NCBI GenBank assembly: GCA_943354165.1
Contig: CALRBH010000001.1
Coordinates: 16,828 to 80,827 of the forward strand
DNA length: 64,000 nt
DNA from: Candidatus Uhrbacteria bacterium RIFOXYB12_FULL_58_10
GTDB taxonomy: Bacteria; Patescibacteriota; Patescibacteriia; UBA9934; GWF2-40-263
Direction of reading: 5' to 3'
Position numbers and translations under genes: made by a program
In this document: one piece after another, positions 2,643 to 52,770 of the stretch
Layout: every line of letters begins with the position of its first letter
How positions within the stretch are numbered: position 1 is the stretch's first letter
The notes under the pieces: model-generated
What the model was told of the DNA's origin: nothing
Database searches by the model: none
The model's input: only the letters and a program-made list of their open reading frames with translations

Positions 2643-3035
2643 ATGATTAACGACCCAATTGCCGACATGCTCACCCGGATCCGGAACGCTATTGCCGCGC
2701 GCAAGAGCGAGGTTGACGTACCCGCATCCATGGTGAAAGAGGCGATCGCACAGATTCTCGTGCGTGAAGGTTTCCTTGCCCGCGTCGAACGGGTGGGCGA
2801 AATGCCGCACGCTATGCTTCATCTTACCTTTGCGTTTGATGCAAGCCAGCCAAAGATCCGCGATTTGAAGCGTATCTCCAAGTCCGGTCAACGCGTGTAC
2901 GCGAAGGCTACTGAGCTCCCACGTGTCATGTCCGGTCTCGGAATTGCTATTATTTCCACACCGAACGGGCTCATGACTAATAAGGAAGCTCGCTCGCGTC
3001 GCCTCGGGGGAGAAGTTATTTGCGAAGTGTTCTAA
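2643..3035 (+). CDS. rpsH: 30S ribosomal protein S8
   Basis: 130 aa, DPIADMLTRIRNA S8 N-terminus. Confidence 0.95.
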   Translation: MINDPIADMLTRIRNAIAARKSEVDVPASMVKEAIAQILVREGFLARVERVGEMPHAMLHLTFAFDASQPKIRDLKRISKSGQRVYAKATELPRVMSGLGIAIISTPNGLMTNKEARSRRLGGEVICEVF

Positions 3036-3045
3036 TCGACCCCAT

Positions 3046-3603
3046 ATGTCCCGCATTGGTAAACAACCTGTTATCCTTCCCGAGAAGGTAGAGGCATCCG
3101 TACAAGGCCACACTGTTACAGTGAAAGGCCCAAAAGGTTCGCTTTCCCAAGCCTTCAACGAATCGGTGACGGTCACTGTTGGTGATTTTGAGGGGAAGCC
3201 AGCGCTCAACGTAGACGTCGTGAATCACGAACTCGTTTCCGATCGAGCTCACTGGGGAACTGCTCGCGCAATCCTCGCCAATATGGTGGAAGGGGTTGTG
3301 ACAGGGTTTTCAAAAAAACTTGAGGTGAACGGGGTCGGGTATCGTGTAGCTCTCTCCGGGAATAAGCTCGTGCTCACTCTGGGATTCAGTCATGATATCG
3401 ACATGATTATTCCAGAAGGAGTAACAGCAACGGTAGAGAAAAACATCATTACCATCACAGGGATAGACAAGCAGATGGTGGGTGAACTTGCCGCCAGCAT
3501 CCGAAAAATGAAGAAGCCGGAACCCTATAAGGGCAAAGGCATCAAGTACATCGACGAGGTCGTACGCCGCAAGGCAGGTAAGGCCGCGAAGACCGGCGAA
3601 TAA
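3046..3603 (+). CDS. rplF: 50S ribosomal protein L6
   Basis: 185 aa, MSRIGKQPV… L6 N-terminus. Confidence 0.95.
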
Positions 3604-9339: not shown

Positions 9340-10110
9340 ATGGCCACATTATTTTCCACCACCGGCATCGTCCTTTCGCAGAGAAACCACCGCGAAGCGG
9401 ACCGGTGGTATTCGGCGTTTACGCCGGAGCACGGGAAGATCGAGTTTCTTGCGCGTGGTGGGCACAAGCCTTTAGCGAAGCTCACTCCTCACCTTGAAAT
9501 GCCGGCGGAGGTCGAATTTCTGCTTGTCGACGGTCGCGCGTATCTTACGGTAGCTGGGACTGATCGACGTAGAGCCTTTTCGAACATCTACACCGACTAC
9601 TCACGTCTCTCGCTTGCGCAGAGCGCACTTTCTCTTACTGATCTCGCAACGCGTCCACAGGAAGCTGACCCTGCGCTTTATGATACGCTCGTGCGCTTTC
9701 TTTCTTTTATCGACGCTGCTCCTGATTTTTCTACGGAGCGCGCCGCATTTCTTCTCTCGTCGTTCACGCTCAAGCTTCTTGCACTTACTGGGTATCGTCC
9801 AGAGCTTGAACGATGTTTGCACTGTAAGAATTCCATCGCGCAGGGGCAGTACCGATGGCACGCCGTGAAAGGGGGAGTGGTGTGTATGCCGTGCGCGACC
9901 GGTTCGTCGGAAGAATGGTTTGCCGCGCGTTCGATTCCGGACGAAGCGCTGAAGCTTTTGCGCTTTGCGTTATTCGAACCATTCGAATCGCAGATTAAGC
10001 CGTTTCTTTCTGCCGAAGCGATCTTGCCGTATCACGATCTTGTCGAATCACTCGTTATTTCGCACTTCCCAGCGATCCCGGCGTGTTCGCTTCGTAGTGC
10101 GTGTTCGTAG
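9340..10110 (+). CDS. recO: DNA repair protein RecO
   Basis: 256 aa; N-terminal OB fold and C-terminal Cys4 (CLHC…CMPC) zinc motif. Confidence 0.8.
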   Translation: MATLFSTTGIVLSQRNHREADRWYSAFTPEHGKIEFLARGGHKPLAKLTPHLEMPAEVEFLLVDGRAYLTVAGTDRRRAFSNIYTDYSRLSLAQSALSLTDLATRPQEADPALYDTLVRFLSFIDAAPDFSTERAAFLLSSFTLKLLALTGYRPELERCLHCKNSIAQGQYRWHAVKGGVVCMPCATGSSEEWFAARSIPDEALKLLRFALFEPFESQIKPFLSAEAILPYHDLVESLVISHFPAIPACSLRSACS

Positions 10111-10216
10111 TGCGTTGAGTTCCTTCGTCGTTGAGACTCCTCAGGATGGCAATGAAATTGAGATTTCATTGCCATTTCCTGCCGGTTTGCTACAATCTTG
10201 GGGTTATTTTCGCATT

Positions 10217-11512
10217 ATGATCAGCACGTTCGTTAAGGATATTGGGGCTAACGTTGGCCAAGAAATTGAACTCAAAGGTTGGGCCTATAACTTCCGTTCA
10301 AGCGGGAAGATTTTTTTTCTCCAATTCCGCGATGGGACCGGGGTAACGCAGATTGTGTACTCCAAGGCCGCCCTCACTGAAGAGCAGTGGAACGCTCTGC
10401 AATCTTTGCGCATCGAATCGTCCGTGATCGTAACGGGGAAGGCGAAGCCTGATCGCGCAGGGACGGGTTTCGAACTCGATGGTACTGGCGTCACGATCGT
10501 GAGTCTTGCGGCGGAAGATTATCCAATCGGCAAAAAGGAACACGGTCCAGATTTCCTTCACGACATGCGTCACCTCTGGCTCCGGTCACCAACACAGTGG
10601 GCGATCCAGCGCGTGCGCGATACGGTGATCCATGCGACGTACGATTATTTCCGCGAAAAGGGTTTTACGAAAATCGATTCTCCGATTCTGACGCCGAACG
10701 CCTGTGAAGGGACGACGGAACTTTTTGAGATGGATTACTTCGACATGGGGAAGGCATACCTTTCGCAGTCGGGCCAACTTTACCTCGAAGCGGCTGTCAT
10801 GAGTTTCGGTAACGTGTTTGACTTCGGGCCGGTGTTTCGTGCCGAGAAGTCCAAGACACGCCGTCACCTTACGGAGTTCTGGATGATGGATGCGGAAATG
10901 GCGTTTTGCGATCACGAGGGGAACTTGAAAGTTCAAGAAGAACTCATCTGCCGCATTGTTGCGGACGTTTTGAAACACAATCGTTCCGATCTTGCGATTC
11001 TTGAACGCGATGTGACGAAGCTTGAAAAGATCCAAGCGCCATTCGTCCGCATGACGCACGCGGAAGCTGTGGCGAAACTGAAAGAGCTCGGAAGCGACAT
11101 TGGGCCAATGGATGACTTGGGTGCGGATGATGAGACGAAGCTTACCGAACTTTACGAGCGGCCGATTTTCGTCGAGAAATATCCAACCGTCGTGAAAGCG
11201 TTTTACATGAAGCGCGATCCGAATGATCCGACGCATGTGATGAACGCTGATATGCTCGCGCCGGAAGGGTACGGCGAAATCATCGGTGGCTCGCAGCGCG
11301 AAGACGATTACGAAACGCTTCTGCAGCGCATCAAGGAACACAATCTCCCTGTCGAGCAATTCAATTGGTACCTCGACCTGCGCAAGTACGGCAGCGTCCC
11401 ACACAGCGGCTTCGGCTACGGCCTTGAGCGCATCGTCCGCTGGATGTGCGGCATCCACCACATTCGCGAGACGATTCCGTTCCCACGCCTCATTAACCGC
11501 CTGACGCCGTAA
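10217..11512 (+). CDS. asnS: asparagine--tRNA ligase
   Basis: Class IIb aaRS; motif FRAEKSKTRRHLTEFWMMDAEMAF matches the AsnRS motif 2 region; start taken at MISTFVKD (the longer ORF 9965.. overlaps recO). Confidence 0.85.
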   Translation: MISTFVKDIGANVGQEIELKGWAYNFRSSGKIFFLQFRDGTGVTQIVYSKAALTEEQWNALQSLRIESSVIVTGKAKPDRAGTGFELDGTGVTIVSLAAEDYPIGKKEHGPDFLHDMRHLWLRSPTQWAIQRVRDTVIHATYDYFREKGFTKIDSPILTPNACEGTTELFEMDYFDMGKAYLSQSGQLYLEAAVMSFGNVFDFGPVFRAEKSKTRRHLTEFWMMDAEMAFCDHEGNLKVQEELICRIVADVLKHNRSDLAILERDVTKLEKIQAPFVRMTHAEAVAKLKELGSDIGPMDDLGADDETKLTELYERPIFVEKYPTVVKAFYMKRDPNDPTHVMNADMLAPEGYGEIIGGSQREDDYETLLQRIKEHNLPVEQFNWYLDLRKYGSVPHSGFGYGLERIVRWMCGIHHIRETIPFPRLINRLTP

Positions 11513-11513
11513 T

Positions 11514-12911
11514 ATGCAAAGGACCTGGACTGTCGAAACTCCAAATAAGATTGGCGAGACCGTGAAAGTAAACGGCTGGGCGCACAATGTACGCGTCATG
11601 GGCGACAAGCTCGTGTTCGTCGACCTCCGCGACGGATCTGGCCTCTTGCAGGTCGTGTTCTACAAGCCTGACCTCTCTCCGGAAATGGCGGAGATCGTTT
11701 CGGGCGTGAAGCCGGAATTCGTTCTTGAGATCGAAGGGGAAGTGAAGGCTCGTGGGGCGAAGCAACTGAATCCTGATCTTCCAACCGGGACGGTTGAACT
11801 TGGAGCGAAGTCGATCAAGATTTTGAACACCTGCGAGACACCTCCGTTTGAAATCAACAAGGATACGAAAGACATCAATGAAGAGTTGCGTCTCAAGTAT
11901 CGCTATCTCGATTTGCGATCGGAGCGCATGCATCGCAACATTTGGCGCCGCAGTTCGATCGTTCGATTCATTCGTGAGCATCTTTACAGCCATCACTTTA
12001 CGGAAATTGAAACACCCGTGCTCACTAAGGGTACGCCAGAAGGCGCGCGTGAATTCCTTGTGCCTAGTCGTTTGCACAAAGGGAAGTTTTACGTGCTTCC
12101 GCAATCGCCGCAGCAGTTCAAACAGTTGCTCATGGTCGGCGGCATGGAGCGCTACTTCCAGGTGGCCAAGTGTTTCCGAGATGAAGACCAGCGCGGTGAC
12201 CGCCAGCCGGAGTTTACGCAGATCGACCTTGAAATGAGTTTCGTTGAGCGTGAAGATGTTATGGGGTTGATCGAAGGCATGCTGATCGAACTTGTGAAGA
12301 CGCACTCACCGGAGAAGCGTATTCAAGCCGTGCCATTCCCGCGCATGAGTTACACAGATGCGATGAAGAACTACGGGAACGATCGCCCTGACATTCGTGA
12401 AGACAAGAACGATCCGAATCTTCTCGCGTTTTGCTGGGTCGTCGACTTTCCGTTCTTCGAAAAGACGGAGGACGGTGGCTGGACATTCACACACAACCCA
12501 TTCTCGCGCGCCGTTCCGGAACATCACGAAGCACTGATGGACAAGAAAGACATCGGAAGCATTCTCACCTCGCAGTACGACATCGTCCTCAATGGATTTG
12601 AAATCGGCGGAGGATCGATCCGCAACCATGAACCAATGGCGCTTCAACGCGTGTTCGAGATCATGGGATTCTCGCTTGAGTCGATCAAGGCGCAGTTCGG
12701 TCACATGCTCGAAGCCTTCACATTCGGTGCACCACCGCACGGCGGCATCGCGCTCGGGTTCGACCGTCTTATCGCCATCCTTTGTAACGAACCGAATATC
12801 CGCGAGGTCATGGCGTTCCCAAAGACTGGCGACGCACGCGATCCAATGATGGATGCGCCAAGCGATATGCCGGAGAAGGCGCTCATGGATGTGCACATCA
12901 AGAAAGCGTAG
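11514..12911 (+). CDS. aspS: aspartate--tRNA ligase (short form, no GAD insertion domain)
   Basis: 465 aa; CFRDEDQRGDRQPEFTQIDLEMSF is the AspRS motif 2 region; shorter than typical bacterial AspRS. Confidence 0.85.
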   Translation: MQRTWTVETPNKIGETVKVNGWAHNVRVMGDKLVFVDLRDGSGLLQVVFYKPDLSPEMAEIVSGVKPEFVLEIEGEVKARGAKQLNPDLPTGTVELGAKSIKILNTCETPPFEINKDTKDINEELRLKYRYLDLRSERMHRNIWRRSSIVRFIREHLYSHHFTEIETPVLTKGTPEGAREFLVPSRLHKGKFYVLPQSPQQFKQLLMVGGMERYFQVAKCFRDEDQRGDRQPEFTQIDLEMSFVEREDVMGLIEGMLIELVKTHSPEKRIQAVPFPRMSYTDAMKNYGNDRPDIREDKNDPNLLAFCWVVDFPFFEKTEDGGWTFTHNPFSRAVPEHHEALMDKKDIGSILTSQYDIVLNGFEIGGGSIRNHEPMALQRVFEIMGFSLESIKAQFGHMLEAFTFGAPPHGGIALGFDRLIAILCNEPNIREVMAFPKTGDARDPMMDAPSDMPEKALMDVHIKKA

Positions 12912-16980: not shown

Positions 16981-17066
16981 GCCGGGGTGGCGGAATGGTA
17001 TACGCGACGGACTCAAAATCCGTTATCCGAAAGGGTGTGAGGGTTCGAGTCCCTCCCTCGGCACCA
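16981..17066 (+). tRNA. tRNA-Leu (anticodon CAA), CCA encoded
   Basis: Cloverleaf: acceptor GCCGGGG/CCTCGGC, anticodon loop CTCAAAA, long variable arm, GGTTCGAGTCC T-arm, 3' CCA. Confidence 0.85.
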
Positions 17067-17096
17067 CTGCAGATTTCCTTGAACCTGCATTATCCT

Positions 17097-17128
17097 AACA
17101 ATGTCGACCATTTTCGGTCGACATTGTT
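17097..17128 (+). repeat. perfect 13-bp inverted repeat (aacaatgtcgacc…ggtcgacattgtt) 30 bp after tRNA-Leu
   Basis: Read directly; lies at the tRNA / GC-rich island junction. Confidence 0.6.
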
Positions 17129-17366
17129 GTTATTGGTTCGAGCGATTTTAGTTGACTCTGATCAACCTGTGGATAACCGTGCCGCATGCCACCACCGCCA
17201 GAGGAGCACACCAACGAAGCGCAGGAGTGGTCGCTGACGATGACGTTCCAGTGGCTCGAGCAGGCTGCGGAGTTTCTGTGGCGCATGGGCGCGCACAAAC
17301 CGAAGGAGGAGGACCAGATGTGCGCAGAAAAAAGAACCGACGCCACTTGGGCGTCGGAAACCGCGG

Positions 17367-17801
17367 CTATGCCACGGCAAGGTCTGCAAGGAACTGGCTC
17401 GGTGTCTTGACTGTGACCGGTAGCGTTGGCGCTGCCTGCTGGATGTGCACATCGCCGCTGACGATGACATCGGCATTCGCTGTCACGGCGCATTGCACGA
17501 CCCAGTCGTCGTCGGCGTCGCCCTGAATCCAAGTCGCCTGGGGCTCGACGGAAGGGACGAAGTCCATGAGGAGCTTGAGGTCTTCGAGGATTTCGTCGAG
17601 TACCTTCACGCCCGGCCCTCGTCTCGCGAGGAGTCGTTGGATGCTCGGCCGACCCATCACACCGATGAACTCTCCCCACAGATGGTCCGTGGTGCACGCG
17701 GTGAAGCGACGGAGCGCGAGCGCGTGCACGACGAGGCCGGGTGGCCCCGAAGGCTTGAGAAGGGCGCTGACGAGGACGTTCGAATCGAGCACCGCAATCA
17801 C
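17367..17801 (-). CDS. PIN-domain ribonuclease toxin (VapC-like)
   Basis: 144 aa; MIAVLDSNVL…D…D acidic residues of the PIN fold; preceded by a small antitoxin with 4-bp overlap. Confidence 0.7.
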   Translation of the reverse strand: MIAVLDSNVLVSALLKPSGPPGLVVHALALRRFTACTTDHLWGEFIGVMGRPSIQRLLARRGPGVKVLDEILEDLKLLMDFVPSVEPQATWIQGDADDDWVVQCAVTANADVIVSGDVHIQQAAPTLPVTVKTPSQFLADLAVA

Positions 17802-18025
17802 GCGTGACCCCGGACCTCAGCGATCGCTTCGGCGACGGTCTGCTCCACCTCCTCCTCTGAAAGCGAGGGGGCCGTGCGGGTCCACTCCTCCCAACGAGCC
17901 CGGAGTCTCTCTCGCGCCGCTTCTCGGTTGTGTGATGTTCGCAACGTATTCGCGAGCATTTCAAGGAACCTGATCTCTTCGGGGGTTAGCCCGTCAACGT
18001 TTAGTTGTTGCATCAATACCTCCAA
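17798..18025 (-). CDS. antitoxin of the VapBC-like module
   Basis: 75-aa helical protein overlapping the PIN gene start. Confidence 0.5.
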   Translation of the reverse strand: MEVLMQQLNVDGLTPEEIRFLEMLANTLRTSHNREAARERLRARWEEWTRTAPSLSEEEVEQTVAEAIAEVRGHA

Positions 18026-18158
18026 CTATTTCGTACTCCATAAATGGGGTTCTGTCAACGCCAAATGATGTCTGTTGATGTGCCATTTGTTGGCCATAGC
18101 AGTCATTGTCCTTCGCTCCACGTCCACTTCCGGGACAACTGCATCTTGCCTCGATGAG

Positions 18159-18593
18159 TCATGGCGTGCCCTCTGGCTCGGCGTCTGCGTCGACCAAGGG
18201 ACCAACGTCATATCGCTCGACATCGACGTCTGCGCCGCAGAATGCGATGAGGCGCATGCGATCGTCCTCGGTCGCGCTCGATCCGTCCACGCGCGTGACG
18301 AAGCCAGCGAAGTCGTCCACGCGACCGCCGCCACCGAAGCACAGGCCGCCAGCTTCGACGACGTCGATGAGCCGATCAGTGAACGCGTCGACGTTGGTCC
18401 CATCGCCGAAGCGGACACGTACCTCGAAGCCATATTGGGCCGTGGGAGCCATCGCCGAAGGATACCAAGCGGAGGCCGGGCTGTCCTCGTCGTCGAGAGA
18501 AAATTCTTGACTTTTGAGACAAGATCGGAATCGGTTTGCCAGATCCGGTCCGCGAGCAGTAGTATGGGGCATCCCGATCGGAGCCGTATGCAA
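18159..18593 (-). CDS. hypothetical protein (uncertain)
   Basis: 144-aa ORF with non-repetitive composition, antisense to the 5' extension of the 18075 ORF. Confidence 0.2.
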   Translation of the reverse strand: MHTAPIGMPHTTARGPDLANRFRSCLKSQEFSLDDEDSPASAWYPSAMAPTAQYGFEVRVRFGDGTNVDAFTDRLIDVVEAGGLCFGGGGRVDDFAGFVTRVDGSSATEDDRMRLIAFCGADVDVERYDVGPLVDADAEPEGTP

Positions 18594-19466
18594 CGCCCAT
18601 CAATCAGCCGCCGGCCAATCGCTGTTCTCGGATCTATCGCCGCGCTCGTCGTGGTCGTTGTGGTTGGCAAAGGCTGCGGGCCTGAACAGCAGGTTGCCGT
18701 TGATCCTGTCATCCCGCCGATGTCGCCGGTACAGCTGCCGCCCAAAATTTCATTGCTTGGCGTCGATCAAGCCGGCGGCCGCTACGAGATGCAAGTCGTT
18801 GGAGAGGATCACGACGGGCTGGTCCCCAAACGCCTGACCTACACGACGAGCGGAGGTGAGCGGCAGCTCATTGCCGATGGCGTCCTCCTCGCAGACTTCT
18901 CGCCGTCCTCGGCACTCGTGGCGTATTGGACGGCGGACTATCGGCTGACCATCGTGCGCGATCAGGAAGTGGTCGCGACCATTGCAGATGCTGGCTGGCC
19001 TCGGGTGTCCCCCACCGGAGGCAAGGTGGTCTTCGTCCGCTACCAGCAGGACGTAAGTTCCAGGCCGGGGTTTGCTGCCGAACATGCGATCGGCCTTCAG
19101 CTCCTCGATGTGAGGGACGGCAGCACCATCGCCCTCACCGATAGCTCGCAGGACTTCGCTCCATTTTGGCTTGATGACCGCTGGGTCGCTTTCGGTTCAG
19201 GGCGCACGGAGAATCCAGCGAACACCGTTGCCTCGCTTTGGCTGGTGTCAGTTGATCACTCCGTTCCGGTTCGTCTCACAAACAAGAATATCGAATCGGC
19301 TTCCGACCCGGCTTTCATCCCGATCCCATCTGAATACCCGGCAGTTTCTGAGAGCGTGGACGGGGTCGTGATTGACTACCCGTCCGACGACACGCACGTC
19401 CATCTCGTCGTCGATCTCACCAAGGGCAGTGTCACGGCCGTAAATGTTACTCGGGGCGCACAATGA
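18588..19466 (+). CDS. membrane-anchored TolB-like beta-propeller (PD40 repeat) protein
   Basis: Start taken at MQRPSISRRPIAVLGSIAALVVVV (TM anchor); repeated …W(T/L)xD… propeller blades; the longer 18075 start is doubtful. Confidence 0.55.
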   Translation: MQRPSISRRPIAVLGSIAALVVVVVVGKGCGPEQQVAVDPVIPPMSPVQLPPKISLLGVDQAGGRYEMQVVGEDHDGLVPKRLTYTTSGGERQLIADGVLLADFSPSSALVAYWTADYRLTIVRDQEVVATIADAGWPRVSPTGGKVVFVRYQQDVSSRPGFAAEHAIGLQLLDVRDGSTIALTDSSQDFAPFWLDDRWVAFGSGRTENPANTVASLWLVSVDHSVPVRLTNKNIESASDPAFIPIPSEYPAVSESVDGVVIDYPSDDTHVHLVVDLTKGSVTAVNVTRGAQ

Positions 19467-20629
19467 ACTACCGCAGCGTTCTTTTCGTCCTCATCATCGC
19501 GACCGCTTTGCAAGGTAGTGTTGCCAATGCCGCGCCGAAATTCCGCCGACCTTTCGGGCAGAGTGTGACCGTCCTCAACTTCATGGATCACGATTCGAGT
19601 GCAAGCTGCAAAACGTATGACTGCAGAACAGGTTGTGCAACCGGTGTTGGAAAGAGCTATGGCGACCATGGTGGGACAGACTTCGACTTGGCTGTTGATT
19701 CAGCGCTCTACGCCGGAGCGAACGGTGTGTTCGAGAGCCGGTATGACGGCTGTTCGAACACCGGCACATTGATCAGCACGTGTGGCGGTGGATTCGGCAA
19801 TAATGTGCGCATGAAACATCCGGACATTTATTCGATCTATGGTCACATGAAAAACGGAACGCCAATCAATGTAGCGAATGGCACAATTATCAACTGCAGC
19901 CAGGAAATCGGTCGCAGCGCGAGTTCAGGAAGGTCGAACTGGCCGCATGTCCACTTCGAGCTCCGTACGGCCCCGACAAGCGCAACGACCTCGATCGACC
20001 CGTACTCGGGAACATGCAGCCAGTCGACCAGCTACTGGGTCTCGGTCACCGGTACGGCGCCGGCGACGACTTGTGCGAGTCCGCCCGCCGAGACCTGCAA
20101 TGGAGTCGACGACAATCAAAACACCATCATCGACGATCTCGAAAGCTGTTGGACGCCGGTCTACCGTTTTTGGGACACCTCGATGGCGTCGACGGCCCGC
20201 TCGCGCTGCTATGGAACGTCGTCAAGCCCTCCGTCGCTGTGCAGCGGATACGCACTTGAGTTCTCCGGGCCGGCCTTCTATGTGTACAGGAATTCTGGCA
20301 TACCCGGGACCGTCGAGTTGATTGCTTTCGATAAGAACCAGGACCATATCCTTACGCGTGGAGACGAGTCCGGCGATATCGCTGCGCTGACACAAGCTGG
20401 ATACACCCGCCGCGGGACGCTTGGCTACATCTGGAGCAGCACAAGTACTGCTCCAACAGGCACATTCTTCAAGCCGTCGGGTGCAAACACCTCCAGTGTG
20501 CGGAACCTGCGCCGCTTCTCGAAGAACCCACCAGGGATCCATCTCTTCCCGAACAACCCGGCTGAGACTGCACCGTCGGGCTGGTCCAACGAAGGCGTGC
20601 GCGGCTTTGTGTTTTCGTCCCGCTGGTGA
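19463..20629 (+). CDS. secreted M23-family (LytM-like) peptidoglycan metalloendopeptidase with C-terminal Cys-containing module
   Basis: Signal peptide; GDHGGTDFD (HxxxD) and HVHFE (HxH) zinc motifs; C-terminal CNGVDDNQNTIIDDLESCWTPVYRFWDTSMAS shared with the amidase. Confidence 0.8.
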   Translation: MNYRSVLFVLIIATALQGSVANAAPKFRRPFGQSVTVLNFMDHDSSASCKTYDCRTGCATGVGKSYGDHGGTDFDLAVDSALYAGANGVFESRYDGCSNTGTLISTCGGGFGNNVRMKHPDIYSIYGHMKNGTPINVANGTIINCSQEIGRSASSGRSNWPHVHFELRTAPTSATTSIDPYSGTCSQSTSYWVSVTGTAPATTCASPPAETCNGVDDNQNTIIDDLESCWTPVYRFWDTSMASTARSRCYGTSSSPPSLCSGYALEFSGPAFYVYRNSGIPGTVELIAFDKNQDHILTRGDESGDIAALTQAGYTRRGTLGYIWSSTSTAPTGTFFKPSGANTSSVRNLRRFSKNPPGIHLFPNNPAETAPSGWSNEGVRGFVFSSRW

Positions 20630-20642
20630 CCTGCGAAATTTG

Positions 20643-20661
20643 GGTGCCGCCAGGGTGCCGC
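20643..20661 (+). repeat. 19-bp direct repeat copy 1 (ggtgccgccagggtgccgc)
   Basis: Identical copy at 20872-20890; flanks the tRNA-like fragment and the integrase 3' end. Confidence 0.7.
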
Positions 20662-20778
20662 AAGCCCGCGGCGTTCGGCGGTTTCCAACGGAACAGGACG
20701 GGATGGAGCGGACCACGAGATCGTGAACATCGTCGAGGCTGTGCGGGCCAAAGTCGCTCCCCGTTCAGGGTTTTGTGC

Positions 20779-20805
20779 ACAACTCGCAACAGGTTCGATT
20801 CCCGC
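20779..20805 (+). other. tRNA 3'-end-like fragment (T-arm GGTTCGATTCC + acceptor strand + CCA), putative att-site remnant
   Basis: caggttcgattcccgccgcctccacca; no complete cloverleaf upstream. Confidence 0.45.
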
Positions 20806-20826
20806 CGCCTCCACCAGAAATGTGAC

Positions 20827-21918
20827 CTAGAAACGGGAGCTTACGGCTCCCGTTTCGCTTTTCTCGCCCTTGGTGCCGCCAGGGTGCCGCTCCGCCGATT
20901 TTCCAAACGGGCTCGGCTCGTCGAGCAGGACCACCGCCTCCCGTCGCGCGTCCGGCGAGAGGTGGGCGTAGCGCATGGTCATCTCGACGGTCGAGTGGCC
21001 CATGAGTTCCTGCACCGCACGGATCGGCACGCCACGCATCACGAGGTGGCTCGCGAACGTGTGCCGCAGAACGTGCCACCCGATGCGCCGGAGCCCTGCC
21101 CGTTTGCAGGTGCTCCACAGCGGGTGCTTGCAGTCCCCGTCGGTGAGCGGCTTGCCGTCCTCGCGGCAGAAGACCCGGTCCCCTCGCAGGTGCCGGTGCT
21201 TCTTGAGCGCCTCGACGACGGACTGGGCGAGAGGAACCTCTCGGCTCTTCCCGCTCTTGGGGGTTCCCTCGTGTCCCCGCCAGATGCTCCGGCGGACCAT
21301 GAGCCTCCCCGCAACCAGATCGACGTCGTCCCACTTGAGCCCGAGCAGCTCGCCTTGACGAAGGCCGGTCTTGAGCGCGACGACGATCATCGTCATCCAG
21401 ACATCCTTCGCCGCCGCGACGAGCCGGTCGGCTTCGGGGAAGTCGAGGAAGTCGAACTTGCAGGGAGGCGGCCGGAGCCAGTGGAACCTGGGCACCGTCG
21501 TGATCTCCCCGACGTCGCCGGCGGTGAGGCTCGGTTCGTCGCGACGCGGAGCACGGCTGAAGGCGACGTCGTGGGCAGGGTTCGACGGGAGGTGCTTCTT
21601 GGCGATGAGGAAGCCGAAGAAGCTGCGTAGGACCGTGAGCTTCCGGTTCCGCGTGGTGGGCGCGAGCGTTGAGTTCCCGTTGCCCAGGTATTCGACGAGC
21701 AGCTCACGCGTGACGGCTTCGGCGTCGACGATCTGGCGGGCCGCGGTAAACACGCCGAGCAGGCGAAGTTCGGCGCGATAGCTGACGACCGTGGCCGGCG
21801 AGAAACGCCGTTCCTCGTCGACGTGGGTCACAAAGAGGCGTGCTGCCTCGTCGATGCGCATGCGCTGTCTCCGGCGGCGGAGTGCCGCCGGCAGGGAGCC
21901 TGCCCAAGTTCGCCACAT
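20827..21918 (-). CDS. tyrosine-type site-specific integrase/recombinase
   Basis: 363 aa; catalytic region LRHTFASHLVMRGVPIRAVQELMGHSTVEMTMRYAHL; the C-terminal tail overlaps the direct repeat and a hairpin. Confidence 0.9.
   Translation of the reverse strand: MWRTWAGSLPAALRRRRQRMRIDEAARLFVTHVDEERRFSPATVVSYRAELRLLGVFTAARQIVDAEAVTRELLVEYLGNGNSTLAPTTRNRKLTVLRSFFGFLIAKKHLPSNPAHDVAFSRAPRRDEPSLTAGDVGEITTVPRFHWLRPPPCKFDFLDFPEADRLVAAAKDVWMTMIVVALKTGLRQGELLGLKWDDVDLVAGRLMVRRSIWRGHEGTPKSGKSREVPLAQSVVEALKKHRHLRGDRVFCREDGKPLTDGDCKHPLWSTCKRAGLRRIGWHVLRHTFASHLVMRGVPIRAVQELMGHSTVEMTMRYAHLSPDARREAVVLLDEPSPFGKSAERHPGGTKGEKSETGAVSSRF
20872..20890 (+). repeat. 19-bp direct repeat copy 2
   Basis: Identical to 20643-20661; lies within the integrase 3' coding end. 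Confidence 0.7.
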
Positions 21919-22107
21919 AGATGCAACTGCGCCGTCCGGATCTCCATCGACGTGGCTTGCGGGGCTCGACGGAGCGTCGCTTTTATTGTATGGTGATGCT
22001 AAACAGTCGCGGCACGTTCGGTTTCATGCCACCCACATGTCCCGCGGCCACGCGACGAACCGGCCGCGCTAACCTCGCCCGACGGATTTTCCCCGGGGCA
22101 ACAACCT

Positions 22108-22896
22108 ATGCCGACCCTAAACGACACAACACCAAGAATGGCCATTGGCGTAGCCGCCGCGTGCATCGCGCTGCTCGGTGCGGGGTGCCCGGTCAAACCC
22201 GAGCCGCCGCGGTCTGTTCCAGCGGCGAGCAGTAAAGTGCCCTCGATCATTGAAACAATCGTATTGCCGCAGCCAGCTTCAAGCGAGCCATCACCACCTT
22301 CTCTTATTGATCCCCGGTTTTCGGACGATGGAACCTCGGTGTTGTTTACAAATGCGCGGGGTCTAAGCACCATTCGAATCGCGCTACCGGAAGCGATCCA
22401 TGCCTTCCCAGTGACCACACAATCGACCGGACTTTTTCTCGAGCGGAATGGCTCGATACTTGCGCGTTTTCCAAACGAGAGCGATCGGGAGGTTGTTGTT
22501 GCCGTCGGAGAGCAATATTGGGGCTCGCAGTTTTCTCCGAATGGAGACTGGATCCTCTTTCAGGAAGACAGAGTAGATGGGGCCCACATCTGGGTCATCA
22601 ACAAAGACGGCGCTGAACGCCGCGATCTCGGTCTCGGGCAGCAGCCTACATGGCTTCACAATTCCCAGGGTGTTCTCTTCGTAATTGCCGAGATGGGCCA
22701 GGACATAGAAAACCAGCATAATATCGTGGCGAGCGACCTGTGGTTTGCCTCGGTCGACGGAACTCACCGAGTTTCCTTGACCACGACCGCGGACCAAGTC
22801 GAACTCAATCCGATCGTCGCCAACGATGGCAAACACGTCGTTTCAATCGACGGCTCGACTGGTCAGGTCTTGCTCTCAACTCTTGGCGAGAGGTAG
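22108..22896 (+). CDS. lipoprotein with TolB-like beta-propeller repeats
   Basis: Lipobox LLGAGC; PD40-like repeats (FSPNGDWILF, WFASVDGTH). Confidence 0.6.
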   Translation: MPTLNDTTPRMAIGVAAACIALLGAGCPVKPEPPRSVPAASSKVPSIIETIVLPQPASSEPSPPSLIDPRFSDDGTSVLFTNARGLSTIRIALPEAIHAFPVTTQSTGLFLERNGSILARFPNESDREVVVAVGEQYWGSQFSPNGDWILFQEDRVDGAHIWVINKDGAERRDLGLGQQPTWLHNSQGVLFVIAEMGQDIENQHNIVASDLWFASVDGTHRVSLTTTADQVELNPIVANDGKHVVSIDGSTGQVLLSTLGER

Positions 22897-22901
22897 CCCT
22901 G

Positions 22902-24845
22902 ATGCAGCAAGCTCGACGATTGAATCATGCGATGGTTGCCGCAGTTCTCCTGACCGCGACGACTGCATCTTACGCACAGACATCACCCTATAAGAAAATC
23001 TTCTTGAACCCAAGTGACCAGACATGGAACCTGGTTACGGGCGGAGGGACTGAAGCGGAATACGCTCGATTGATCGCAGCACGAGTGCAGACCCACCTTA
23101 TTTCGGCGGGACACAGCGTTAAGCTGCACTATTCGCGTCCTGATGCTCCGAAGCGTGCGAGAGAGTGGTCAGCAGATTATTTCGTCTCGATCCACTCAAA
23201 CGCAGGACGATCACACGGCATTGAAACCCTCTTTGGGGTCACGCCAACGAGCGAAGAATTTGCTCTGACCATCAAGACAGCGCTATTGGATGGTTATGGA
23301 AATCAGGAAGGATTTCCTGACCGAAGAGTCATAAATGGGGTTAACATCGCGGATGTCTTGGCATTTACAACCATGCCGGCGGTGCTCGCTGAAACAATGT
23401 TCCACGATTGCACAACGGTGCATACGTCAACAAGTGAGTCTGCGTTTTTGCGAAGTGAAGATGGGCAAAAGCGTGTTGCCCTAGCGTTGGCTCACGGCAT
23501 TTGTTCAGAGTTCGGCGAAGACTGCGGGTGCGCCATTTCAGCCGGTGAAGGATCGAGCGACGCTGAGGTTTTTGCTGACGCATTCGAGCGTTGGGGCGGA
23601 CGACTTGGCTGCCCAGCGGAGGCGGGCGGAGGACCGAACGTCCACGACGTATTCGGAGTATCCTTGCAGGATTTCTATCAACCTTCTGCGGAATGGCATT
23701 TTGATGGGAGTGACGGGAGAACAGCGCTCGCCTATGGAGGCTCGGGTGATAGCGCGTCCGCGTCACTCCTTCGCAGTGGATTCTGGGCCGCATACAAGTG
23801 TCTGGTCGCTCCAAGCGGTGGAGGTATGGGTGGGGCGCATTATTTAGGAGCTCCGCTTAGCGAGGAGTATCGACGCGGACAAGGTGGCGAACGCAGTGAC
23901 CCTCTGGATCATGGGAATCTGCTGTGTCCGAACGGGCATACATGTCAAGATTTCGAGCACGGTCACATGTGGTTCGGTAATGAGACCCCATCACCATCCG
24001 TCCATATTCATGTAACAGGTGTAACGGAGCAGGATGGTGACAGATCGACGTGCGTCCAGCCCCCTCCTGGGATCAGGCAGGATTGTCTCGACCCCGGCCT
24101 CAATCTACGGTTCTGCGACAACCCCCCTTTTGGGCCGGTCTGTGGTGATGAGAGTTGCGACGCTGACAGCGAGAGCTATTCGTCCTGCGCTGCCGACTGC
24201 TTCTACACCTCCGCGCTCCCATCACAGACACCCAACGGCGTCTCCCGGATGTGCCCTGGCGAGACCACGTTCTTCACGCTCGAATACGAGAACACAGGGA
24301 CGCTTCCGTGGATCGACACAGACGACGGCGTTTCTGGCCCTGCATACGTCGAGCTGCGGTCAGTGAACCCAAGCGGCAGCGACGAGGTCGACTCCCCCCT
24401 GTTCCCGGGTTCACCCTGGATCAACCCGCAGCGCGTCGGCCCGCCGCTCGATTCTAATGTCGAGCCCGGCGCCTTCGCGACGTTCAACGTACCGGTGCTC
24501 GTTCCGGCCGATGCTGTTCCAGGCGAAGAGATTGCCGCGTATTTCAGGCCGTACTCTGCCGAGATGGATCAGTCCGGCGACGGCTTCTTCGAAGACTGGG
24601 GCGAGGCCCACTTCACTGTTCAGGTACGCGATTGCACGCCGGCCGGGACGACCTGCGCCGCCCTGCCTGCTGAGACTTGCAACGGCATCGACGACAACCA
24701 GAACACCGTGATCGACGATCTTGAGAGTTGTTGGGTTCCCGTCTATCGGTTTTGGGACACGTCAATGGCCTCAAACATTACGGTGGGCATGTCGATGGAG
24801 GATTCCTTGAACGTTCTCGCCTGTATCGCATTGAGGAAGCCGTAA
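22902..24845 (+). CDS. N-acetylmuramoyl-L-alanine amidase (Amidase_3) with long C-terminal extension ending in the CNG..DDNQNT module
   Basis: Signal peptide; YFVSIHSNAG…(H/E) Zn ligands of Amidase_3; C-terminal AETCNGIDDNQNTVIDDLESCWVPVYRFWDTSMAS. Confidence 0.75.
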   Translation: MQQARRLNHAMVAAVLLTATTASYAQTSPYKKIFLNPSDQTWNLVTGGGTEAEYARLIAARVQTHLISAGHSVKLHYSRPDAPKRAREWSADYFVSIHSNAGRSHGIETLFGVTPTSEEFALTIKTALLDGYGNQEGFPDRRVINGVNIADVLAFTTMPAVLAETMFHDCTTVHTSTSESAFLRSEDGQKRVALALAHGICSEFGEDCGCAISAGEGSSDAEVFADAFERWGGRLGCPAEAGGGPNVHDVFGVSLQDFYQPSAEWHFDGSDGRTALAYGGSGDSASASLLRSGFWAAYKCLVAPSGGGMGGAHYLGAPLSEEYRRGQGGERSDPLDHGNLLCPNGHTCQDFEHGHMWFGNETPSPSVHIHVTGVTEQDGDRSTCVQPPPGIRQDCLDPGLNLRFCDNPPFGPVCGDESCDADSESYSSCAADCFYTSALPSQTPNGVSRMCPGETTFFTLEYENTGTLPWIDTDDGVSGPAYVELRSVNPSGSDEVDSPLFPGSPWINPQRVGPPLDSNVEPGAFATFNVPVLVPADAVPGEEIAAYFRPYSAEMDQSGDGFFEDWGEAHFTVQVRDCTPAGTTCAALPAETCNGIDDNQNTVIDDLESCWVPVYRFWDTSMASNITVGMSMEDSLNVLACIALRKP

Positions 24846-24997
24846 AGGTGTTGTCTATGGCGCTTAAGGGAAATTCGACGATGACCTTGCCTGAAGCAAA
24901 GAAGTTTCTTGTCGAAAGTATCTAAAATAGCGAGGTTTCCTTCCGATAACCGCCCTTGCCAATTTAGACATATTGGGCTAGGATTCCGGGGGTTCAT

Positions 24998-25074
24998 GGC
25001 TGGGTAGCTCAGTTGGTTAGAGCACGGGACTCATAAGCCTGAGGTCGCGAGTTCGAATCTCGCCCCAGCTACCA
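24998..25074 (+). tRNA. elongator tRNA-Met (anticodon CAU; Ile2/lysidine type not excluded), CCA encoded
   Basis: Near-identical architecture to E. coli elongator tRNA-Met (GGCT…TAGCTCAGTTGGTTAGAGCA…CTCATAA…GGTTCGAATC…ACCA); one A·G mismatch in the anticodon stem. Confidence 0.8.
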
Positions 25075-25180
25075 GAATCGTTTATCCTCTTCTCGAATCC
25101 TCGCAGAGAGGATGCCGGAGGAGGGCTAAGCGATTAGCCTCAGTATCGCGGGGTAGAGCAGCCAGGCAGCTCGCCAGGCT

Positions 25181-25870
25181 CGAGTGCTCCGATCATTTCT
25201 TTCCGAACATGGATACCAAACTCAAGGGAGATATTGCTGAACAGGCATCTGTTTTGCAGGCCCTCCGAAGAGGTTGGGGTGTTCTTCGCCCGTGTGGGGA
25301 CCGTCATCCGTATGACATGGTCTTCGAGATACGGGGTGTGTTCGTCCGAGTGCAAGTGAAGCACGCATGGCTTGATAAGAAGTCTAGCAACTACGTGATC
25401 GATAATCGTCGGACAAAGACGAATCGTCTGGTCATGAAGCGCCAGCCATATCAAGCAAGCGACTTTGACTTCGCGCTCGCGTACGTCCCAGAAGGAGAAA
25501 ACTTTTATGTGTTCCCACAGAATACATTCTCCAGTTTCGGAAGCGTGATCCACATGGTGGAACATGATAAGCGCCAACGTAAACCGCGATCTGCGGAATA
25601 CAGAAACGCTTGGGAATTGATCGAGCGATGGGCCGCGCATGGGGAAACTCATGCGGCAACCTCTGTCAAATTCGGGGAAGCCTAACGGTGGTAATCCCGA
25701 GCCAAGCCCTGAGACGCCGCAAGGCGGTCGAAGGGAAGGTGTAGAGACTTAACGGCAGACACCCTCGCGCCCCTCCTACGCTCCTCGGAGCTTCGGTGGG
25801 CGGTGCAGGGTGAAGAGAAAGTCCAGACTACGAATCCCGCAAGGGAGCGGCGAAAGCCGAAGTAGGTAAG
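25181..25870 (+). ncRNA. group I-like self-splicing intron in the tRNA-fMet anticodon loop
   Basis: 5' exon ends in U, intron ends in G (omega-G); 3' core contains GAAGGTGTAGAGACTTAACGGCAGACACC and GAGCCAAGC, resembling the P7 region of anticodon-loop tRNA introns as recalled from memory. Confidence 0.6.
25209..25685 (+). CDS. intron-encoded putative homing endonuclease (possible PD-(D/E)xK fold)
   Basis: 158-aa ORF wholly inside the intron; D…E.K-like acidic/lysine motif (PYDMVFE…VQVK); context analogous to cyanobacterial tRNA-fMet intron endonucleases. Confidence 0.5.
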   Translation: MDTKLKGDIAEQASVLQALRRGWGVLRPCGDRHPYDMVFEIRGVFVRVQVKHAWLDKKSSNYVIDNRRTKTNRLVMKRQPYQASDFDFALAYVPEGENFYVFPQNTFSSFGSVIHMVEHDKRQRKPRSAEYRNAWELIERWAAHGETHAATSVKFGEA

Positions 25871-26015
25871 CATAACCTGGAGGTCGTGGGTTCAAATCCC
25901 GCCCCCGCTACCAAAATATCCTCTGAGAAATCAGGGGATATTTTTGTTGAAAATGAGCCACGTTTTCCCGCTTCCGTTTTCCCCCCACCTCGATTATACT
26001 ATCCGCGTACTCACT

Positions 26016-45610: not shown

Positions 45611-48600
45611 ATGCGCCGATTCCTCACATCAACTCTCCTTATCTCACTCCTCCTTGCGCTCGCAGGGATCGGGATGGTTCAGGTTGGAGCGGTGCATGCG
45701 CAGGACCTGGCTACGTTCGGGGAGCAGGCGGGATTTACCACAACTGGCGACCTCACCTCGATCATTGCTCGGTTGATCCGCACCGCCATTAGTTTCCTCG
45801 GCATCATCGTAGTAATCTTCATTTTGTACGGAGGTTTCCTGTACATGACGGCCGCAGGGGATGAGACCCGCATCACAAAAGCAAAAAATACATTGAAGAA
45901 TGCCGTGATCGGTTTAGTGATCGTTCTTTCCTCGTTCTCGATCGTCACGTTTATTCTTTCCAGGCTTTCGGACGCCACGGGAACGGGAAGCATTATTGGA
46001 TCCGATGGGGGCGGCGGCTTTACTCCGCCGGGCGGGGGAACGCGCGCGAAGATTTTTGCGCTTGAGGGCAGTAATGCCGCGGCGTGCGAAGGGATCATCC
46101 AGAACATTCGACCGCAACTCGTATTCACACAGCAGGTGGACCCTGCCACGCTTGTGGGAGGGATTGTGGTGACCAACGGTGCCGTGGCTGTGCCAGGAGC
46201 GTTTACTACGTCCGGACGCACGGTGACGTTCACGCCAACGGAGGTTTGCGCGGCAGCTCCGACTGAACGCTGTCTTCCTGCAAACTCCACCATTCAAATC
46301 ACCCTCAATCCTGCCGTCCTGAAGAGCGCAAGTAAACGGCCGCTCACCTGTACCGCGGATCCAGGCTGTTCCGTGAATTACACCACCGGAAGCGCCGTGG
46401 ACACGCGTGCACCTTCGGTTTCGATGAAGGCTCCGGAGAGCGGATCATCCTTCCGACTCGGGGATATCGTTTCTTTGCAGGCGGCGGCGATTGATGATGT
46501 CGCGCCGGCGATCGTCTCCTTCACGGCGGCTGGGGATAACATCTTTGATTCATCGGATCGCACGCCGGGGACACTTCCTGGCGAGTTCTTGTTCGCGACA
46601 GATGCGTCCCAGTGGGATACGGCTGGGTTCGAGGCAGGACGTTCCGTTGCGGTCGCAGCTTCCGTGAACGATTGCGCCGGACATACCGCAAATGCTTCGT
46701 CGGTCTCCGTTTTCCTCCGTGCGGATTCCTGTTTCAACGGTCAGCTTGATACTTCACTCGGTGAAACGGATGTTGATTGTGGTGGCACAGGCGCGTTCTC
46801 CTGCGGAGCCTGCGAAGGGCAGTCGTGTACCACGAACGCGGATTGTTCCGCGACCGGCGCCTGTGAGAATGGCCGATGCGTCGCCGTTGTCCGCATCGAT
46901 TCCATTTCGCTTAACGATGGCGCACCTGGGAACTTTGTCTCTATCAACGGCGTCGGGTTCGGAACGACGCCAGGTCCGGTGGCATTTCTTGGAGCCGCGG
47001 CGGGCGATGCAACAAACGCTCAGGTCGTTTCATGCGACACGGTGGTTCAGTGGGCACCTACCCAGATCATCGTGCAGGTTCCCGCTGGCGCAAAAGACGG
47101 ACCGATCCGCATTACGAATGCGGCGGGCCAAATCGACAGTTCAAACGACGATCGCGGAGCTACGTTCCAGCCATTCGACGTGAATGGCGTTGAGCGTCCA
47201 GGATTATGTGCACCATCTGTGGTGCTTCCGGGTCTCGGCGCTCCAGGCGACACGGTTCGAATTTCTGCTTCGAAACTTGGATCGGATCGCGGTAGCTCGA
47301 TGCTGTTTTTCTCGGACGTTCAGGCGAGTGCATATCTCTCCTGGGGTGACACTTTGGTGTCCGCAATTATCCCTAACGTGAACGCACGCGCCCATTCCGT
47401 CCAAGCGTTTGTTGGGGATAACCGGTGTACGATTACGACGACGCTTGCCTGTGAACGCGACGCCGATTGCGGTCCGGCCGGCGGCGTTTGTGCGTTCAAC
47501 CGCCAGGGTTCGAACATCGTGAAGCTCAACGTGGTTTCCTCGAGCACTACAAGCGCACCGCTCCTCTCGACGGTTTCACCAGCAACGGGACCGATCGGGC
47601 AAACCATTACGCTCGCTGGGAACGGATTCGGCACCACGCGCGGTACTGTGCGGCTTGTAAGTGCGGCGGACGATTCCAAGGTTGCTCTCGCAAGCATTGA
47701 TTTTCCTGCGGCTTGCGGCGACGGACTCTGGCGCGATGATCTCGTGACCGTGATTGTTCCGGCCGCCTATCAGGGTGCGGGCGGAGCGGTGCAGCCAGGC
47801 GTTCATAAGATGCGCGTCGTGCGCACGCCGGACGGTACGGGATCAAATGAAATCGACTTTACGATCACTGCAGGCGTTCCAGGGCCAAGCATCTGTAAGA
47901 TCGATCCAGTTTCCGGTCCAATCGGAACTCCTCTCACTATTTCCGGCGCCAAGCTCGGAACCCAGAAGGGAACCGCGACGTTCTTCGGCGTAGCGGCTCC
48001 GGTCGCGGCCCCGGCGGAATCAAGCTGGTCTGCGGATGCCATCACGAATTTCCCGGTTCCTGTTGGCGCACAAACGGGTCCGATGAGCGTACAGACCGCA
48101 GGGGCAGCGGGGGTTTCGTCAAACACGCTGCCGTTCCAGGTTTCTGATTGTCGTCAGGCCAACAACGTCTGCCCAGTTGGATCCGAATGCTGTGGCAATG
48201 GAACGTGTGCCACTTCTTGTGCCCCATCCATCGAGGAAGCGTATTACATGTGGCGCACCTCCACCGGCCCGATTCCAAAGGTCCCGCGGGTGATCGTTCA
48301 GTGTAACGATGAGCTGCTTTCGCAGTCCCCGTGGGAAGGATTCAGCACACCTTCGCATGTCTGTCTGGAAGCGGATGTTGTTGCGACCTTCTCCGTCGGC
48401 GCAGACATTGCGGCGCCGATCATGGACATCACGACGCTCACCGCGGCAAACATTCAAGTCGAGAAGTGCGCAGCCTCTGGATCGGATCCGTGCGGAGACG
48501 GAAAACGCACGCAAGGACCGGTCGGGGTAATTGTTCCTACCGATTCGAGTTTCAAGTTTACGCATGCAGCGCCGTTTGAGCCGAGCACGCGCTATCGCGT

Positions 48601-52768: not shown

Positions 52769-52770
52769 GT

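Follow-up and report, generated by a model that had tools for sequence, protein, structure and literature searches.

The closest described system is the tRNA-fMet intron of Synechocystis PCC 6803 (GenBank U10482), an insert of 655 nucleotides (nt) in the initiator tRNA gene which encodes the 150-amino-acid (aa) protein I-Ssp6803I, described as a catalytically active homing endonuclease (PMC1995217). Elements of this type have been known since the 1990s and their mechanism is not new; a 2026 survey places position 33/34 of tRNA-fMet among the common, well-characterised sites at which group I introns enter bacterial tRNA genes (PMC13011429). In the 4,934 complete genomes of that survey, tRNA-fMet introns encoding a protein of Pfam family PF11645 occurred only twice, both in Cyanobacteriota, and the tRNA introns of Patescibacteria were nearly all of subgroup IA with none assigned to subgroup IC, their usual site being 35/36 of tRNA-Asn and tRNA-Asp and their endonucleases being of the HNH type (PMC13011429). 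The locus described here lies in a 64,000-nt stretch (the window) of contig CALRBH010000001.1 from assembly GCA_943354165.1, Candidatus Uhrbacteria bacterium RIFOXYB12_FULL_58_10. We conclude with reasonable confidence that a mobile group I intron of the same lineage as the Synechocystis intron has here split a chromosomal tRNA-fMet gene of a Uhrbacteria-like bacterium at the U33/C34 junction; splicing, the activity and target of the endonuclease, and co-transcription are features that we infer from sequence and homology. The kind of element is already known, and the window is a counter-example to the 2026 survey in its host, adding a new host phylum to a known intron and endonuclease family.

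In comparing the two elements, the same host gene is interrupted at the same 33/34 class of site (PMC13011429), the sizes are similar (690 nt and 158 aa in the window, 655 nt and 150 aa in Synechocystis), and the proteins are homologous over their full length, both belonging to PF11645. The window differs in that its host is a Uhrbacteria-like member of the Patescibacteria and not a cyanobacterium, in about 40% of the protein residues, in the anticodon stem of the target (CCAGG/CCUGG in the window, UCGGG/CCCGA for Synechocystis) and in a 43-nt extension of helix P8, the RNA comparison being made solely through other cyanobacterial tRNA-fMet introns. A second point of reference is the group of IC3 anticodon-loop introns without an open reading frame (ORF), found in cyanobacterial tRNA-fMet and tRNA-Leu(UAA) and in Azoarcus tRNA-Ile; these have in common with the window a compact P2-P9 core, short P1 and P10 helices to which bases of the anticodon loop contribute, and GNRA loops on P2 and P9, whereas the P1 loop of the window carries an ORF that extends into the core. 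The window core aligns with the cyanobacterial tRNA-fMet introns, as the original prediction had supposed; a resemblance to the Azoarcus intron is presumed. Compared to the Patescibacteria tRNA introns of the survey, the window element is found in the same phylum, is likewise in an anticodon loop and is likewise missed or mis-bounded by standard tRNA finders; however, it is cyanobacterial or IC-like in type and encodes a PF11645 protein (PMC13011429).

The split gene and its insert consist of the following parts, and the exon coordinates are those of the original prediction, which hold.

25147-25180, + strand: tRNA-fMet exon 1, 34 nt, positions 1-33 with U33 as its last base, sequence CGCGGGGTAGAGCAGCCAGGCAGCTCGCCAGGCT, colinear base for base with the intronless gene of a syntenic metagenome locus (L093).
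25181-25870, + strand: group I intron, IC3-like, of the tRNA anticodon-loop type, 690 nt, identified by Rfam RF00028, alignment and covariation.
25209-25685, + strand: homing endonuclease gene of the I-Ssp6803I / PDDEXK_5 family, 158 aa, with its UAA stop at 25683-25685 in L5, the loop of helix P5.
25870, + strand: terminal G of the intron (omega-G), invariant in 79 introns.
25871-25913, + strand: tRNA-fMet exon 2, 43 nt, positions 34-76, starting with CAUAA, with the CAU anticodon and the encoded CCA at its end, sequence CATAACCTGGAGGTCGTGGGTTCAAATCCCGCCCCCGCTACCA.

Joining the exons gives a 77-nt tRNA which ARAGORN calls tRNA-Met(cat). The initiator features that had been claimed for it are all seen in the cloverleaf and the sequence: C1 and U72 are unpaired, the D-stem GAGC/GCUC places A11:U24, the anticodon is CAU, and CCA is encoded. 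The supposed likeness to E. coli tRNA-fMet is borne out by 88.3% identity over 77 of 77 nt to tRNA-Met genes that occur at a median of 4 positions in E. coli genomes, and the identity to the uninterrupted tRNA of L093 is 94.8%. The split gene is invisible to ARAGORN in its default mode. When introns are allowed, the program recovers the correct ends and an intron of 690 nt, but with the boundary displaced and the gene labelled tRNA-Ser(cga); the U/omega-G rule and comparison with the intron-less allele of L093 rule out that call. It is the same rule, together with base-for-base comparison to that allele, that fixes the boundary at 33/34: the 690-nt insert lies between U33 and C34, is preceded by the exon U and has G as its last base, as had been proposed, and the site agrees with the one described in the survey (PMC13011429).

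The insert is a group I intron. A scan with RF00028, whose gathering score is 50, matched 25581-25849 with 56.7 bits and, taken over the whole window, an E-value of 1e-11. The intron core was further aligned with those of 78 introns from other genomes, all of them between tRNA-fMet exons (79 introns, 77 distinct sequences). The window has all 67 columns that are invariant in this alignment, and its core is 61-80% identical to the 78 others. The core strings GAGCCAAGC...GAAGG..GGTGTAGAGACTTAACGGCAGACACC, which had been quoted from the sequence as core-like, are present at about 25699-25763 and fall in the most conserved block among the 79 introns. A consensus structure of 54 pairs (P2, P3, P4, P5, P6/6a, P8, the P9 domain and the P7 pseudoknot) was modelled on the alignment, and pairs were counted on it: 97.8% of the consensus pair cells hold a standard pair, compared to 31-41% when the partners are slid by 1-3 columns, and compensatory changes are found at 37 of the 54 pairs, compared to 10-21 in the slid control and a mean of 26.6 in shuffles. 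None of 500 shuffles was as good as the observed alignment on any of five measures. The proposed folding of the P helices was thereby carried through for P2-P9 including P7, with 50 of the 54 pairs formed in the window; the four unformed ones lie at helix ends or within the window's own P8 extension. The intron is called IC3-like because of its alignment with cyanobacterial tRNA-fMet introns and what is generally known of those introns; membership of the subgroup is presumed. Taken together, the observations on exons, insert, core and ORF are not due to chance.

The paired elements of the intron and its guide are as follows.

25186-25199, + strand: 5' strand of the helix closing the P1 loop, pairing with 25614-25626 at -15.2 kcal/mol.
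25614-25626, + strand: 3' strand of the closing helix, inside the ORF and just upstream of the guide.
25628-25634, + strand: internal guide sequence AUGGGCC, of which GGGC is invariant in 79 introns.
25636-25655, + strand: P2 hairpin with a GAAA tetraloop, compensatory changes at 7 of 8 pairs.
25662-25667, + strand: P3 5' strand, partner 25754-25759, compensatory changes at 6 of 6 pairs.
25672-25700, + strand: P4-P5 domain, with P4 at 25672-25677/25695-25700 and P5 at 25680-25682/25690-25692; the ORF stop UAA is in L5.
25701-25740, + strand: P6 (25701-25703/25738-25740) and P6a (25707-25710/25732-25735), compensatory changes at all 5 P6a pairs.
25744-25749, + strand: P7 5' strand, G, a bulged A and GACU, pairing with 25820-25824 in a pseudoknot with P3; presumed guanosine-binding helix.
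25754-25759, + strand: P3 3' strand, partner of 25662-25667.
25760-25812, + strand: P8 (25760-25764/25808-25812), compensatory changes at 4 of 5 pairs, with a 43-nt extension at 25765-25807.
25820-25824, + strand: P7 3' strand AGUCC, partner of 25744-25749.
25827-25867, + strand: P9 domain, with a base helix at 25827-25829/25865-25867 and hairpins at 25835-25846 (GCAA loop) and 25848-25859 (GAAA loop), compensatory changes at 10 of 11 pairs.

The splice-site helices were read from the sequence, where both sides are invariant. The guide bases GGCC (25631-25634) can pair with G30-U33 of exon 1 as P1, placing a wobble of U33 (25180) with G25631 at the splice site and C32 and G31 opposite G25632 and C25633, while the guide bases AUG (25628-25630) can pair with the CAU anticodon of exon 2 as P10. 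P7 can form five pairs with a bulged A and is invariant in the 77 distinct sequences, an invariance which carries no covariation information. RNAalifold paired the guide GGGC with GUCC of the P7 3' strand; this is an artefact, since neither the exon nor pseudoknots entered that fold, and the pairing was replaced by P7. The P8 extension of the window, 43 nt and GC-rich, is the longest among the 79 aligned introns, and together with P8 it forms a single long hairpin (-31.2 kcal/mol).

The guide begins 447 nt after the 5' splice site, and the ORF therefore occupies the P1 loop. Across the 40 ORF-containing introns, the leader pairs with its own partner strand at a mean of -11.25 kcal/mol and with foreign partners at -5.34 kcal/mol, and none of 10000 permutations was as low. 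The ORF reads on through the guide and P2, takes in P5 together with the 5' strands of P3 and P4, and ends in L5, so that its last 19 codons overlap the guide and P2-P5 and about 72 nt do double duty for protein and ribozyme. Because these codons are also strands of the guide, P2, P3, P4 and P5, translation and ribozyme folding would be mutually exclusive on one RNA molecule. The expression of intron ORFs that reach into the core is known to be tightly controlled, as folding and splicing are otherwise disturbed (PMC3984707).

The 158-aa ORF was found at 25209-25685 as predicted, and its suspected PD-(D/E)xK signature and likeness to the Synechocystis tRNA-fMet intron endonuclease are upheld. 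The product matches PF11645 (PDDEXK_5) with an E-value of 3e-47 (160.6 bits against a cut-off of 26.1), residues 1-137 covering profile positions 1-137 of 138, and matches chain A of PDB 2OST (I-Ssp6803I) with E=1.8e-57, residues 2-148 against 3-150, at about 60% identity. In an alignment of 82 sequences (81 genomic ORFs and the 2OST sequence), the positions conserved in at least 97% are the N-terminal MDTKLKGDIAE, P28, G30, D31, R32, Y35, D36, Q49, V50, K51 and W54, all of which the window has. E11, D36, Q49 and K51 are among them, and these four are presumably catalytic, as expected of PD-(D/E)xK nucleases. At position 11 (codon 11, window 25239-25241), where Glu is conserved in at least 97%, the deposited 2OST sequence has Gln, and may be an engineered inactive variant. 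An ORF on the minus strand at 25140-25652 (170 aa) matched no Pfam family and was taken as a shadow ORF.

From these parts the following course of events can be proposed. The split gene would be transcribed together with the upstream elongator tRNA(CAU), with transcription ending at a hairpin after CCA. The long-range helix 25186-25199/25614-25626 would close the 430-nt ORF loop and bring the guide at 25628-25634 beside the 5' splice site, where guide GGCC and exon G30-U33 would form P1 with its U-G wobble at the cleavage site and guide AUG would form P10 with the anticodon CAU. With the P3-P9 core folded, free guanosine would attack after U33; G25870 would then occupy the G site, and exon ligation would restore the anticodon loop CUCAUAA. 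The 158-aa PD-(D/E)xK protein, by its homology to I-Ssp6803I, would cut the DNA of the anticodon stem-loop in intron-less tRNA-fMet genes, and repair would copy the intron in. Judged from its sequence, the element is real and probably functional.

Several observations weigh against this interpretation. The Rfam score is 6.7 bits over the threshold, and the 5' part of that alignment is misplaced into the ORF; the helices it puts at 25585-25650 were ruled out by the family alignment, which has the guide at 25628-25634 and P2 at 25636-25655. P1, P10 and P7 are invariant across the alignment, and covariation therefore cannot confirm them. The anticodon stem has two of the three G:C pairs of the E. 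coli initiator type (G30:C40 and G31:C39), with A29:U41 at 29:41. As the intron-less L093 orthologue has an identical anticodon stem and 29:41 is also variable in 2 other loci of the lineage, the two-G:C stem reads as a lineage trait and not as decay, and fewer than three such pairs suffice for initiation in some bacteria. The reconstructed intron-less site of the window, CAGCTCGCCAGGCT before and CATAACCTGGAGGT after the insertion point, shows 5 differences over 28 positions to the commonest host site. Lastly, on sequence inspection a Shine-Dalgarno-like sequence is absent before the ATG at 25209, and the GC content at third codon positions of the ORF is 0.55, against 0.66-0.75 in neighbouring genes; these two features together may indicate low expression or a fairly recent acquisition.

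Some of these points would also fit an alternative in which the intron splices and yields a functional tRNA, while the endonuclease encoded by the ORF has lost its activity or its expression (the ORF being silent, decaying, or kept for another role such as help in folding), so that the intron is immobile and vertically inherited. The start codon lacking a Shine-Dalgarno-like sequence and the variant target site of the host would agree with this, as would the penalty placed on translation by the overlap of ORF and ribozyme core (PMC3984707). Furthermore, the GC content of the endonuclease gene tracks that of the host locus in the six loci checked (0.37-0.62), from which long residence in each lineage, over frequent transfer, can be argued. 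Decay does occur in the family, as 78 of the 81 genomic ORFs are intact and the other three homologues are truncated. Set against this, the window ORF is full length and keeps every residue conserved in at least 97% of the family, including the four presumed catalytic ones, and a related genome with the same gene order has an empty site; the protein also has about 60% identity to I-Ssp6803I, for which catalytic activity is reported (PMC1995217). We regard an inactive ORF as rather unlikely, though the likeliest of the rivals, and prefer a mobile intron with a working endonuclease. The three truncated ORFs, cut short to 11, 53 and 59 aa in three of 80 related loci, are consistent with the decay phase of a homing cycle.

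The surroundings of the split gene bear on its host and on its use as a gene. The best named matches of the window SecY are Candidatus Uhrbacteria / Patescibacteria at 68-75% identity, and by this measure the host is a Candidatus Uhrbacteria-like Patescibacterium and not a cyanobacterium. Searches for exact copies of the endonuclease, of ParA (with two alternative starts) and of the amidase gave no match, and those for ParB and TopA led to a single Logan contig from SRR7054680. The other genes of the window are core genes (SecY, aminoacyl-tRNA synthetases, a Der-type GTPase with Pfam MMR_HSR1 and an EngA C-terminal domain, ParA/ParB, RelA/SpoT and TopA), and therefore the window is chromosomal. 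The flanking elements are as follows.

24956-24984, + strand: promoter-like site TTGCCA-17-TAGGAT, 14 nt upstream of the first tRNA; weak, with 1 found against 0.8 expected in shuffles, which is not significant alone.
24998-25074, + strand: elongator-type tRNA(CAU) (tRNA-Met or tRNA-Ile2), separated by 72 nt from the split gene downstream, found by ARAGORN and by Rfam tRNA at 67.8 bits.
25914-25949, + strand: terminator-like hairpin followed by UUUUUGUUG, -18.3 kcal/mol with z = -5.2, none of 200 shuffles folding as well.

The terminator-like hairpin was seen by folding and left unflagged by a consensus terminator scanner; a comparable hairpin follows the intronless tRNA-fMet of L093. The tRNA at 24998-25074 is of elongator and not initiator type because of its G1-U72 wobble and C11:G24, and it has orthologues upstream of tRNA-fMet in L004, L080 and L093. 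A mismatch of A31 with G39 at the bottom of its anticodon stem is found in all four genomes (window 24998-25074, L004 2499-2575, L080 2802-2878, L093 531-607).

A metagenome scan with the reconstructed intron-less target found at least 120 contigs, and no endonuclease gene was seen near the intron-less targets in 120 loci. In L093, one of these contigs, the order is tRNA-Leu(caa), elongator tRNA(CAU), uninterrupted tRNA-fMet, terminator hairpin, ParA (78% aa identity), ParB (66%) and RelA (65%), which is the order of the window from the elongator tRNA onwards. With this syntenic empty site, the intron is an insertion/absence polymorphism among related genomes.

The possibility that the locus is a disrupted pseudogene, having lost splicing while a separate intact tRNA-fMet gene elsewhere serves the cell, can be weighed here. 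The view of the genome is one of 64 kb, the 43-nt insertion in P8 is unusual, and 4 of 54 consensus pairs are unformed. However, those pairs lie at helix ends or in the extension, which has its own stable hairpin, and nothing is changed in the guide, the terminal G or any of the invariant core bases. The exons are undecayed in comparison to the intact orthologue in L093, with compensatory changes in the T-stem, and the terminator is kept. A tRNA scan and a search for initiator-type anticodon arms and 3' halves found no second initiator-type tRNA gene within the 64-kb window, exon 2 being the sole initiator-type 3' half in it, and the neighbouring CAU tRNAs of the window and 12 related loci are all of elongator type. 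Patescibacteria have small genomes in which tRNAs are usually single-copy, which also speaks against a spare gene. A pseudogene is accordingly judged very unlikely, and a gene still in use behind its intron is the reading kept.

It is less likely still, to the point of being barely credible, that a foreign intron, for example a cyanobacterial one, was mis-assembled into the contig. Such a chimera might be suspected as the genome is metagenome-derived and the exact endonuclease protein has no record as a called gene, but both exons are of the host-lineage type, with the CCAGG/CCUGG anticodon stem and the close match to L093. The intron GC content of 0.54 is near that of the host (0.56) and far from that of cyanobacterial copies (0.41), and the core is at most 80% identical to any other intron, so it was not copied from the element of a co-occurring organism. 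Additionally, among the intron cores most like it (75-80%) are those of L004, L080 and L025, three metagenome-assembled genomes (MAGs) placed in the same lineage by locus synteny or upstream tRNAs: L025 and L080 have the ParA/ParB/RelA synteny in common with the window, and L004 and L080 the upstream tRNAs. Five MAGs (L004, L025, L032, L078 and L080) bear the title 'uncultured Gammaproteobacteria'; in the light of the SecY result they are probably Uhrbacteria/Patescibacteria.

A scan with one genome per species gave 128 relatives of the ORF, and the closest 80 loci were taken for comparison. Nearly all of these have tRNA-fMet exons around an intron, in the following arrangements.

40 of 80 loci: endonuclease gene inside the intron; none cyanobacterial, with Bacteroidota 18, Chloroflexota 4, Acidobacteriota 4, Nitrospirota, Omnitrophota, Planctomycetota, named groups of the candidate phyla radiation (CPR), five 'Gammaproteobacteria'-titled MAGs, and others.
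38 of 80 loci: ORF-less intron of about 245 nt with a free-standing endonuclease gene about 90 nt downstream of the tRNA; Cyanobacteria 33 and a few others, mostly Nostocales.
2 of 80 loci: assigned to neither arrangement.

Since half of the closest relatives carry the endonuclease within the intron and none of these is labelled cyanobacterial, the host range of the element has been underestimated. In the free-standing arrangement, seen among others in L013-L015, L017-L019, L021, L024, L028-L029 and L035-L044, the endonuclease gene comes after the terminator hairpin; in L015, for example, the tRNA exons are at 2596-2629 and 2874-2914 and the ORF at 3001-3474. The tail of the free-standing ORF has a degenerate likeness to the guide-P2-P3-P4 region of the intron, such as a P3-P4-like motif at position 3456 of L015, which suggests that the free-standing ORF descended from an intron-borne copy. 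These 38 loci, having the same endonuclease family just downstream of a tRNA-fMet whose target is occupied, are similar to the collaborative homing of phages, in which a free-standing endonuclease and an ORF-less intron act on the same site (PMC3984707); the window differs from them in being the composite form, with its ORF within the intron.

A further homologue of the endonuclease, 52% identical and free-standing, is found on a viral contig (L203, IMG/VR UViG_3300005936_001382) at 2001-2429 in a tRNA array. The ORF abuts an intron-less initiator-like tRNA(CAU) with the GGGCUCAUAACCC arm and lies next to a tRNA of the suppressor type with a UUA anticodon (tRNAs at 1874-1947 and 2426-2499). 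Phages could be a vehicle of this endonuclease family.

Other features of the window were noted in passing. The distance from tRNA-Leu(caa) to the elongator tRNA(CAU) is 55-90 nt in relatives (L093 390-607, L080 2629-2878) and 8 kb in the window (16981-24998), the interval holding, among others, genes for a protein with an M23 peptidase domain and for a 701-aa protein with an Amidase_3 domain; this gap beside the tRNA cluster may be an insertion or a rearrangement. Two very large adjacent ORFs of 2385 aa and 1753 aa are found at 45611-58032 on the + strand, and a tandem pair of class II (Asp/Lys/Asn-type) aminoacyl-tRNA synthetase genes is at 9965-12911.

In a wider view, which is offered tentatively and with the odds against it, the tRNA-fMet intron and its I-Ssp6803I-type endonuclease form a selfish pair that may have invaded the near-universal anticodon arm of initiator tRNA genes, GGCU followed across the insertion point by CAUAACC, in about 10 or more phyla, including Patescibacteria of reduced genome, which would rely on ribozyme splicing for all translation initiation. 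Some 72 nt in common to ORF and ribozyme, with the closing helix, the guide and P2-P5, might then act as a switch between translation and splicing, and the free-standing copies beside ORF-less introns of Nostocales and beside a phage tRNA might be stages of one cycle. For annotation, standard tRNA finders miss or mislabel such a gene, and genomes carrying it seem to be without an initiator tRNA, which bears on estimates of CPR genome completeness. Were the split gene the sole source of initiator tRNA in a genome of about 1 Mb, the making of every protein in the organism would hang on a ribozyme, and the locus would be a compact natural system for studying how a host depends on its intron and how translation conflicts with folding on a single RNA.

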